Below, one piece after another: positions 4,450-5,524 of a stretch of 8,050 nucleotides of DNA. The position numbers were made by a program, and so were the translations under genes. Positions within the stretch are counted from its first letter, which is position 1. Every line of letters starts with the position of its first letter. The stretch is from IMG/VR virus record IMGVR_UViG_2695420855_000011, positions 1 through 8,050 of that record. One strand, written 5' to 3'. The stretch comes from a virus (taxonomy: Duplodnaviria; Heunggongvirae; Uroviricota; Caudoviricetes). Under the pieces are notes generated by a model. That model saw only the letters and a list, made by a program, of their open reading frames with translations, was not told the origin of the DNA and did no database searches.

Positions 4450-5376
4450 TCAGTTTTTAGCCAGAGCGGTGACGGCATTGTCGAGTTTTTGCCATCCGCA
4501 ATAGGTGATTGCTCTGAATGCTGTTGCGCCATTCTGGAAAAGGCTAACCGCTCCTGATTCGGTTTTTATTACCGCCTCATCAGTTGGAGTTATAACCGTG
4601 GCTTCAACGTTAATAATCAGCTTTTGAGCGTCTATCAGCATCATGCGATCCGCCTGTTCGCTCACAATTACCGGTATTCTCAAAAGCTCTATCTGCCAGA
4701 ACTCAGCATTAGTAAGCTGTAAGGCGTTTTCTACGGGCAAGATTAGCGACGACGTGGCAAGCGTGTTACCGTTCGCTATGTGCTTTTTGAAAAGCTCTAT
4801 GAAGTTTTCGGCCTCATCAGCACCATTAAGCACGCCCTCAGGGGATACGCCCGCCAACTCCTGGTCACTGGAAAGAAATTTTTTATCTATTTCTTTCACC
4901 GATTCCGATGTGATCAAGTCTCTGATCGCTGAATTGGTACCAGGGGTGCTAAATTTGATTAGCTCGTTATTCAGCATCACAATAGCGCCGAGTTTGTACA
5001 GTTTTAGCGAGCTTTCGCTTACTTCTCCCCCTTTTACTGGGATTTCTTCGGCCTCTTTAAGCCATTTACTCCCCTTGCCTGATATTGATTGCAATTTTGC
5101 GCCAAAGGGAAGATTAAGCGCACTACTGATTAACTTGCCAGGTACAGACTGCGAAAAAATATACCCGCCCAGCTCTCTTGCTATCGGCTCAGCCACCAGC
5201 GACGGAAGGTTATCCGTGTTCATTCCTGCTACTACGGATTTTTCAAGGAATAACGAGACAGCCGGATCATTTCTTTTCGTCATCTCTATAGCGTCAGCAT
5301 GGCTAAATTTACACGATGCCAGCACGCTGGCGGCGCGAACTGCTGACACGCCTTTCATGTTTTTACAGATCATCAT
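4450..5376 (-). CDS. HK97-fold major capsid protein-like, 308 aa
   Basis: C-terminal half (...GVLNGADEAENF...LILPVENALQL...LRIPVIVSEQADRMMLIDAQKLIINVEATVIT...SLFQNGATAFRAITYCGW) follows the conserved pattern of HK97-type capsid proteins, by recall not by search. Strong SD (AGGAGGAGGAAG) before ATGATG; translationally coupled to the upstream small ORF. Confidence 0.55.
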   Translation of the reverse strand: MMICKNMKGVSAVRAASVLASCKFSHADAIEMTKRNDPAVSLFLEKSVVAGMNTDNLPSLVAEPIARELGGYIFSQSVPGKLISSALNLPFGAKLQSISGKGSKWLKEAEEIPVKGGEVSESSLKLYKLGAIVMLNNELIKFSTPGTNSAIRDLITSESVKEIDKKFLSSDQELAGVSPEGVLNGADEAENFIELFKKHIANGNTLATSSLILPVENALQLTNAEFWQIELLRIPVIVSEQADRMMLIDAQKLIINVEATVITPTDEAVIKTESGAVSLFQNGATAFRAITYCGWQKLDNAVTALAKN

Positions 5377-5524
5377 CTTCCTCCTCCTGGAAGCACGGTG
5401 TTAGTGTTTCGTGAAAATATGGCATCAGAATAGCGGCGGCCTGTAACCGTATTTCGGTCGGCTGCTGCTTGTCGTTCATGATTTCCGTTAGTACCTCGAT
5501 CGGGTCTGTTATGTATTCGCTCAT
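5363..5524 (-). CDS. Small acidic protein, 53 aa, overlapping the start of the capsid-like gene
   Basis: Own translation: MSEYITDPIEVLTEIMNDKQQPTEIRLQAAAILMPYFHETLTPCFQEEEDDDL. GAGG lies 9 nt upstream of the ATG at 5524; it starts 11 nt after the terS stop and overlaps the capsid-like ORF by 14 nt. Below the ORF-track length cutoff. Confidence 0.4.
   Translation of the reverse strand: MSEYITDPIEVLTEIMNDKQQPTEIRLQAAAILMPYFHETLTPCFQEEEDDDL

Follow-up and report, generated by a model that had tools for sequence, protein, structure and literature searches.

What does the small gene wedged between the small-terminase gene (terS) and a capsid-like gene encode in an 8,050-nucleotide (nt) stretch of caudoviral DNA (IMG/VR virus record IMGVR_UViG_2695420855_000011, positions 1 to 8,050; hereafter the window)? 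The first-pass annotation had described its product as an acidic protein of 53 amino acids (aa), coupled in translation to both neighbours, and had considered it compatible with a scaffold-like or capsid-size-redirecting factor, a partner of the small terminase (TerS), or an inhibitor of the DNA-mimic type. Profile comparisons identify the protein as a copy of the central part, the core hairpin, of a small terminase, and its gene is inherited together with terS.

The open reading frame (ORF) was found where it had been placed, between terS and the capsid-like gene, and it lies on the minus strand, which the first-pass annotation had not given. Its features are as follows.

5363..5524, minus strand: the small gene, ATG start, TAA stop, 53 aa, MSEYITDPIEVLTEIMNDKQQPTEIRLQAAAILMPYFHETLTPCFQEEEDDDL

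5411..5506, minus strand: residues 7-38, the conserved two-helix hairpin, from an AlphaFold2 (AF2) model and the family alignment

5366..5410, minus strand: residues 39-53, the disordered acidic tail ETLTPCFQEEEDDDL, net charge -7, predicted local distance difference test score (pLDDT) ~55

5533..5537, minus strand: GAGGT, Shine-Dalgarno sequence of the small gene, read from the sequence

The Shine-Dalgarno sequence overlaps the TGA stop of terS (5538-5536) and lies 8 nt ahead of the small-gene ATG at 5524; the gap between the two genes is 11 nt. At its other end the small gene overlaps the capsid-like gene by 14 nt. Its 3' codons (CAG GAG GAG GAA GAT GAT GAT CTG TAA) contain both the AGGAGG of the capsid-like gene (5388-5383), within Glu codons, and the ATG(ATG) of that gene (5376 or 5373), within the GAT GAT GAT codons of the acidic tail. 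This arrangement makes a sound structural case for translational coupling on both sides, as had been proposed.

A 2.2-kb block around the small gene was present in 220 of 5,426 complete Escherichia coli genomes (~4%), always in the chromosome, as part of an island that is described below. The small ORF is a protein-coding gene under purifying selection. The Prokaryotic Genome Annotation Pipeline (PGAP) calls it, as a hypothetical protein, in 11 of 11 RefSeq loci inspected, and it is intact and of the same length in all 13 copies (the window, 11 E. coli loci and the metagenomic contig L008). The ratio of nonsynonymous to synonymous substitution rates (dN/dS; Nei-Gojobori, island copies) was 0.18, with a range of 0.05-0.29, and was 0.15 for both terS and the capsid gene. 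In L008, where the capsid gene is merely 79% identical, terS, the 53-aa ORF and the capsid gene have the same layout, and the small protein (~70% identity) keeps the hairpin motif and the acidic tail. The first-pass annotation had named a lack of conservation in related elements as an outcome that would speak against its reading; the gene is strongly conserved there. Mean dS among the E. coli islands was highest in the small gene (0.32), followed by the capsid gene (0.21) and terS (0.12). Further, the 551 nt centred on the small gene (5200-5750) were 90-95% identical among these islands and the 2.2-kb block (4400-6600) 95-97%; the higher divergence around the small gene points to a local hot spot of recombination or divergence.

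The relationship to small terminases was visible only with profiles; BLASTP of the small protein against the island TerS gave no match. When the protein was searched against PHROG with hmmscan, residues 3-40 matched positions 89-126 of 162 of phrog_641, 'terminase small subunit' (E=1.3e-6), which is also the family of the island TerS encoded upstream. A tblastn search of 50,697 phage records returned 23 weak matches, 20 of which lay inside annotated terS genes, at TerS residues ~73-127 of 145-155; the top match was Bcep176 gp80 (36% identity over residues 6-52, E=4e-3). Alignment of the small-protein profile with a profile built from TerS only (hhalign) gave a probability of 94.2% (E=1.1e-7), with small-protein residues 5-44 aligned to residues 93-133 of the island TerS. 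Among PDB sequences, the top match of the family profile was to residues 80-103 of the NV1 small terminase (KVVLEIMNDPNEKGGIRLKAAQDI; E=0.019). The NV1 residues fall within the alpha4-alpha5 hairpin; in the closely related TerS of PaP3 this hairpin spans residues 64-105 and, together with beta1, makes up the oligomerisation core of the nonamer (PMC7672466).

The predicted structures were consistent with this assignment. In the AF2 model of the small protein, computed from the 53-sequence family alignment, residues 8-17 and 23-36 formed helices with pLDDT of at least 90, and the tail (38-53) was disordered (pLDDT ~55). The model of the island TerS comprised a helix-turn-helix (HTH) domain, a disordered linker and the equivalent hairpin helices, 96-106 and 112-126; in Foldseek it matched the TerS structures of SF6, PaP3 and NV1, and we used SF6 G1P (3ZQQ), PaP3 (6W7T) and NV1 (7JOQ) as structural references for Terminase_2/phrog_641-type TerS. 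Foldseek gave no significant match for the 53-aa model because such hairpins are too small for the method. Pfam, NCBIfam and PADLOC had no model for the small protein; matches to Vitellogenin_N and UPF0147 in Pfam and to BPSL0761 in NCBIfam were far below the cut-offs and were ignored.

Small terminases have a general plan of an HTH domain, a core hairpin and a flexible C-terminal moiety (PMC9611059). In the island TerS an HTH domain and a KVT-rich linker are followed by a core hairpin of its own at residues 93-127 (window 5644-5748); the tail, RKISSIGKKEVKK...RFPIPKPP, is basic. The small protein has the central hairpin. Pfam Terminase_2, which covers the HTH domain, did not match it, and 6 residues stand ahead of its hairpin. 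The basic C-terminal moiety 'x(K/R)xGxxGKKE...(R/K)F..PPP', which is presumed to contact the large terminase (TerL) or DNA, is absent as well, and ETLTPCFQEEEDDDL is in its place. Thus the small protein is not itself a small terminase, since two of the three defining parts are absent.

Some other origins of such a fragment were considered and rejected. A TerS split into a DNA-binding half and a hairpin half does not agree with the finding that a hairpin and a basic tail are present in each of the upstream partners. An extension of TerS by read-through or frameshifting is at odds with the variable frame relation between the terS stop and the small-gene ATG, the gaps being 0, 8, 11, 18 or 27 nt among the loci. 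Independent recent duplications of the hairpin of each TerS were discarded because the small proteins are closer to each other (50-61% mean identity) than to their own TerS.

The protein belongs to a family of unnamed proteins of 48-64 aa that consist of a free-standing TerS oligomerisation-core hairpin, with no DNA-binding domain, and a short disordered acidic tail. All that an initial word-index search returned were near-identical proteins of E. coli. HMMER, run exhaustively against 1.84 billion representative proteins, gave 19 matches at E<=1e-3, among them 12 stand-alone proteins of 46-68 aa, 4 ordinary multi-repeat HEAT proteins and 2 TerS-like proteins. When a collection of 5.8 billion proteins was searched with a profile, we obtained ~55 clusters of 48-64 aa, all unnamed, from E. 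coli, Pseudomonas, Paraburkholderia and Burkholderia (Gammaproteobacteria and Betaproteobacteria) and from metagenomes. The next matches were TerS proteins of ~100 aa with a 'GGARPGAGRPKK' arm, the same hairpin and a basic tail. The hairpin consensus of the family is DPxDFLLAVMND-x7-R(I/L)EAAxALMPYFH. P8, M16, A29, A30, Y36 and H38 are invariant in 53 family members, and the window protein carries all six, along with the length, the consensus, the short acidic tail (-7) and the location 0-27 nt (here 11) after terS that define the family. The family possibly corresponds to phrog_15261. None of the named phages among the 50,697 records has the stand-alone gene, and our literature searches found no description of such a protein.

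The HEAT matches reflect a common pattern, D-x-x-V/I-R-x-x-AA-x-AL, and a two-helix hairpin, and multi-repeat HEAT proteins and designed alphaReps were weak matches. Unlike these, the small protein has a single repeat, an acidic tail and a terminase context; the likeness is probably one of shared fold logic, that of laterally stacking hairpins, and not of family membership. One metagenomic protein of 268 aa (P0025) contains hairpins of both types, stand-alone and TerS, in tandem in one chain, with a mildly acidic segment after the first and a basic KKKRGPPP tail after the second. It is a possible Rosetta-stone fusion of the two partners.

Family loci were sought with a hand-made degenerate pattern for AAxxLMPYFH, and chance matches to the pattern, such as a 435-aa family of Dehalococcoidales, were discarded. 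The DNA upstream of the small gene could be read in 16 locus types, and in 16 of 16 the small gene was located 0-27 nt downstream of a TerS-type gene. The loci with the small gene were of the following kinds.

Complete phage modules: L055, L060, L070, L073, L087, L088, L093, L094 and L095 (Pseudomonas syringae-group prophage)

Satellites with integrase, replication genes and a capsid homologue and without terL: the E. coli island and L008; Pseudomonas L023 and L096; Burkholderiaceae L057 and L058

The phage modules are HK97-like, in the order HNH, TerS, small protein, TerL, portal, ClpP protease, capsid. L071 is of this type as well, its stretch stopping before an unambiguous terL, and L056 has HNH, terS and the small gene followed by tail genes. 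L054 shows the E. coli-type overlap of small and capsid genes; its contig starts 58 nt upstream of the small gene, so that the terS side is unseen. The position of the small gene relative to the capsid gene is variable. In the phages it lies between terS and terL, three genes from the capsid gene; the satellites of Pseudomonas and Burkholderiaceae have the capsid-like gene upstream of terS, and here too the small gene comes after terS. Three satellite lineages, minimal in size and without terL, thus retain the small gene next to terS.

The sequences of the two proteins were compared between loci. With the TerS of L094 and L056, where the small gene is present, the island TerS shares 54-57% identity, and with that of Shiga-toxin (Stx) phages 44-46%; the island small protein is 60-61% identical to those of L094 and L056 (TerS 54% and small protein 61% for the phage L094). 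Likewise, the Pseudomonas satellite L023 and the phage L055 share 72% identity in TerS and 65% in the small protein. A mirror-tree comparison of TerS and small protein gave r=0.62. The smallest version of the pair was observed in L057 (5666-5992) and L058 (5786-5992), in which the partner 'TerS' has 108 and 68 aa, respectively, and consists of the core hairpin and the basic tail, with or without the GGARPGAGRPKK arm. This minimal TerS has no HTH domain and is directly followed by the mini-protein with the acidic tail.

The tails of the family are 6-25 residues long, with a mean net charge of -4.7, and 92% have a charge of -3 or below; TerS tails have a mean charge of +4.0. In Pseudomonas sp. 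286 (L023) the tail is acidic though nothing overlaps it. This finding, together with the 92% of members, led us to reject the idea that the acidity is a mere by-product of the ribosome-binding site and ATG of the capsid gene. Frameshifted alleles were also observed: in L070 (9882-10076), and also in L073, L083 and L093 (P0054, P0064), a 1-nt frameshift directly after PYFH produces the basic tail VSKEKSRAFRRHPNPS, the other frame reading EQGEEQGV, and these alleles sit in otherwise intact phage packaging modules. The acidic residues are confined to the disordered tail, and the folded hairpin is mildly acidic. DNA mimics such as Ocr and ArdA, in contrast, have a folded scaffold with an extended acidic array. 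The suggested DNA-mimic inhibitor is therefore unlikely in its classical form, because a disordered tail of 6-25 residues has no rigid charge array; a short tail that competes with DNA or binds the basic TerS tail is possible.

The natural copies of the E. coli island (L001, L002) comprise ~8.5 kb between yejM/tRNA-Pro and yejO, in the order tRNA-Pro, int, HTH/AlpA, Icd-like, DUF4222, RepA helicase or primase, three small ORFs, terS, small gene, capsid-like gene. L001 and L002 have an integrase, AlpA, a replication module, packaging genes without a full virion module, and a tRNA site, which is, as judged from gene content, the layout of a Gram-negative satellite of the phage-inducible chromosomal island (PICI) type. 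Most of the E. coli genomes with the island belong to enterohaemorrhagic E. coli (EHEC) lineages, and it is common in O157, O26 and O111. Two neighbouring genes bear on the helper.

5536..6024, minus strand: terS, 162 aa from the PGAP start MALTT; Pfam Terminase_2 2.6e-10, phrog_641 6e-43

4450..5376, minus strand: capsid-like gene, homologue of HK97-fold major capsid proteins, 307/308 aa; PF05065 Phage_capsid 1e-6, TIGR01554 2.2e-7, phrog_10

The island TerS shares 46% identity with that of lambdoid phages converting for Stx1a, Stx2c and, in some cases, Stx2a, and of their relatives (phage 2851, YYZ-2008, PPompW prophages). The capsid-like protein, which is without a protease or delta domain, shares 23-25% identity with the capsid half of the fused protease-capsid protein in Stx1a/Stx2c-type phages; as a query across species-representative genomes it gave no match. 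In phage 2851 and the Stx-type phages terS and terL overlap, and there is no small gene. These homologies suggest that the helper is probably a lambdoid prophage of the Stx1a/Stx2c type and that the island may be a satellite of Shiga-toxin phages; we found no paper that names it as such.

How might a free-standing terminase hairpin act? We favour, tentatively and with a probability of roughly 45%, the reading that it is an accessory or regulatory TerS-binding subunit that satellites keep together with terS. The small protein would be made together with TerS through translational coupling and would bind it by hairpin-to-hairpin packing, in the lateral manner in which the TerS ring is built. The basic tail of TerS is expected to contact DNA and/or TerL, and the acidic tail of the small protein would lie against it or compete for it. 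The terS-small gene pair of the E. coli island would derive from a pair-bearing phage lineage and would form the satellite's own packaging-recognition complex, which would recruit the large terminase of the helper, probably of Stx1a/Stx2c-type lambdoid prophages, to satellite DNA. Among the options first listed for the protein, that of a TerS partner is favoured on two grounds, the paralogy of the protein with the TerS oligomerisation hairpin and the linkage of its gene to terS, not to the capsid gene, in every readable locus type.

Several observations weigh against a TerS-binding subunit. The correlation between the mirror trees could be due to linkage and nothing more. In natural alleles, which make up two of the 53 clusters, a 1-nt frameshift swaps the acidic tail for a basic one. 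Whereas conservation among the small proteins is high, the hairpins of the partner TerS proteins are of at least four types, and a conserved third-party target, TerL or the basic tail of TerS, fits this at least as well as hairpin pairing does. Further, phages with closely related TerS and TerL lack the small gene (phage 2851, Stx phages, Bcep176, PHB09 and Silvanus), and therefore it is not universally needed for this type of terminase.

The conservation of the small proteins in the face of varied TerS hairpins would also be explained if hairpin and acidic tail bound the large terminase, the HNH nuclease or the portal instead of TerS and tuned nuclease/ATPase activity or portal assembly. The TerL proteins of the phages with the small gene are 57-60% identical or more, and in these phages the small gene sits between terS and terL. 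PaP3-type TerS itself has an acidic C-terminal tail (PMC7672466), and the C-terminal moiety of lambda and P22 TerS binds TerL (PMC9611059). However, satellites without a terL of their own keep the small gene, always beside terS, which would be compatible with such an adaptor if its target were the TerL of the helper, and the related TerL of phage 2851 works without it. We consider an adaptor directed at TerL or the motor quite improbable. A Ppi-like dominant-negative decoy is unlikely as well. Here the free hairpin would insert into or cap the ring of a foreign (helper) TerS, leaving fewer DNA-binding domains and TerL-binding tails, so that helper packaging would be blocked and TerL freed for the satellite TerS. 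A TerS core without functional ends is a classic dominant-negative design, satellites are known to carry the TerS-targeting proteins Ppi and Rpp beside terS (PMC6739421), the presumed helper phages are without the small gene, and the small gene and its surroundings are more diverged than the wider block, the dS of the small gene (0.32) exceeding that of terS (0.12) and of the capsid gene (0.21). Against such a poison, the small gene is a regular part of complete phage packaging modules, right after their own terS, where it would do harm to its carrier unless that TerS were immune. The island small protein is merely 15-17% identical to the hairpins of both helper-type and island TerS, and thus no close mimic of the presumed target, and its hairpin is under strong purifying selection, not arms-race diversification.

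A role in the capsid, as scaffold, size-redirecting factor or decoration partner of the capsid-like protein, was suggested by the overlap of the small gene with the start of the capsid-like gene in E. coli-type islands, and small acidic proteins can act in capsid assembly. The protein has no homology to any scaffold or size-determination protein, its homology being to TerS, and in 14 of the 16 readable locus types the linkage is to terS, not to the capsid gene. Five other satellite loci and nine phage loci have the small gene away from a capsid gene and always beside terS. Adjacency to the capsid gene is thus a local E. coli arrangement, and the scaffold or capsid-size option of the first-pass annotation is very improbable. 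Least credible is a decaying fragment of a duplicated terS, kept open merely as a carrier of the ribosome-binding site and start of the capsid gene. The acidic codons do double as the AGGAGG and ATG of that gene, and alleles with frameshifted tails exist elsewhere. However, the low dN/dS extends across the whole ORF, the family with its six invariant residues is conserved from E. coli to Pseudomonas and Burkholderiaceae, and the acidic tail is present where nothing overlaps it. A bolder form of the TerS-binding subunit, which we regard as doubtful, is that the family represents a previously unrecognised third terminase component of widespread HK97-like phages. As a 'headless and tailless' ring subunit derived from TerS it would determine how many DNA-binding domains and basic tails there are or how they are spaced, and satellites would exploit it to poison or re-programme the TerS ring of the helper. 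If so, it would be the first factor for hijacking packaging to have arisen from the TerS oligomerisation core, acting in E. coli on Shiga-toxin-converting prophages.

The small protein can be set beside known terminase proteins and their antagonists. With TerS it shares the central two-helix ring hairpin and the operon, directly after terS; unlike TerS, it is about one third of the size, lacks the HTH domain, the linker and the basic GKKE...RF..PPP tail, has an acidic tail and forms a conserved family of its own. Ppi of Staphylococcus aureus pathogenicity islands (SaPIs) is likewise a small satellite protein encoded in the terS operon and proposed to act on the small terminase; it is described as binding the helper TerS, not the satellite TerS, and as blocking helper packaging (PMC6739421). 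Ppi differs in being known only from the Gram-positive SaPIs and is not reported to be derived from TerS, whereas the small family is also present in complete phages. Packaging is redirected by Rpp of E. coli cos-PICIs (EcCICFT073), a mimic of part of TerS that enters a heterocomplex with TerS (PMC6739421). However, Rpp has 139 aa, mimics the winged helix-turn-helix (wHTH) DNA-binding domain, dimerises by a long C-terminal helix and acts on lambda-type Nu1 (PMC6739421); the small protein has 53 aa, a short two-helix hairpin and no HTH. Further, the Rpp islands are without terS, whereas the E. coli island described here has its own terS and the mimicry concerns the oligomerisation hairpin.

TerI of Listeria prophages is also a small (65 aa) protein of a mobile element that binds TerS and controls packaging (bioRxiv 10.1101/2025.02.27.640495). 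The TerI gene lies in the early region and serves as a defence that is expressed during lysogeny, unlike the small gene with its place in the late packaging operon, and no homology is indicated. Gpi of the Vibrio PLE is a small mobile-element protein that targets TerL, as cited in the same preprint (bioRxiv 10.1101/2025.02.27.640495), and here too no homology is indicated. The small protein has no homology to scaffold and size-redirection proteins of the CpmB, Sid and Ccm types and is set apart from them by its linkage to terS. It is not Rpp and is not to be equated with Ppi, TerI or Gpi; conceptually it has its place among such small proteins that target the terminase, where it alone is a copy of the TerS oligomerisation core and common to phages and satellites.

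Further features were observed around terS. Three copies of a 26-nt repeat of the GGTGTAAC(T)n type are present at 5792-5829 and 6046-6071, two in tandem within terS, where they encode the KVT-rich linker VTKPKKVTKKVTEKVT, and the third just upstream of the terS start. Because pac/cos sites are often in or beside terS, these repeats are a candidate TerS recognition (pac/cos) site. A second conserved ORF of 53 aa (6152-6313, minus strand; a WP_001018604-type hypothetical protein) lies just upstream of terS; its matches, to coiled-coil families, were all weak and below threshold. The long terS ORF extends at its 5' end into this second ORF, and the overlap favours the shorter terS start of PGAP.

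The window as a whole is a mosaic of another IMG/VR record, IMGVR_UViG_2585427761_000019 (L081, 8,195 nt), in the following segments.

1-239

240-3745

3746-4449

4450-7626

7627-8050

A stretch of 704 nt links two deletion derivatives of the island, both of them 100% identical to L081. This stretch resembles an attP junction: the integrase-side flank runs up to the first ~20 nt of tRNA-Pro and is followed by the attR-side flank. Positions 1-239 are repeated exactly at 4450-4688, and 3322-3621 at 7627-7926. The RepA helicase gene is truncated at 7626 and fused to an integrase fragment; the junction 7626/7627 was absent from all 5,426 complete E. coli genomes. The mosaic is either an artefact of assembly or construction or an excised and rearranged form. 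The block 4450-7626, which holds the small gene, is collinear with the natural islands.

Two sets of direct repeats were noted in the window. Repeats of 45 nt that are rich in CCCCACT(T) (6878-6922 and 7046-7090) lie in the interval that separates the phrog_1231 gene from the 3' end of the RepA helicase gene and look like iterons of the replication origin of the island. A 27-nt repeat, CCGTATAACTAAACGTATAACTAAAAA, in two copies of 96% identity (3808-3834 and 4039-4065), flanks the attP-like junction beside the integrase gene; the copies may be arm-type binding sites of the integrase.

Small terminases are treated as homo-oligomers. What is new here is an uncharacterised family of mini-proteins derived from TerS, together with a hypothesis of hairpin pairing and charge-complementary tails. 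If the hypothesis is correct, some small terminases would be hetero-oligomeric or regulated by decoys, with a bearing on packaging specificity and the recruitment of TerL. The small protein also adds a candidate to the short list of factors that redirect helper packaging (Ppi, Rpp and Gpi). In E. coli, where the TerS and capsid homologues point to helpers of the Stx1a/Stx2c type, the island might influence the production of Shiga-toxin phages.

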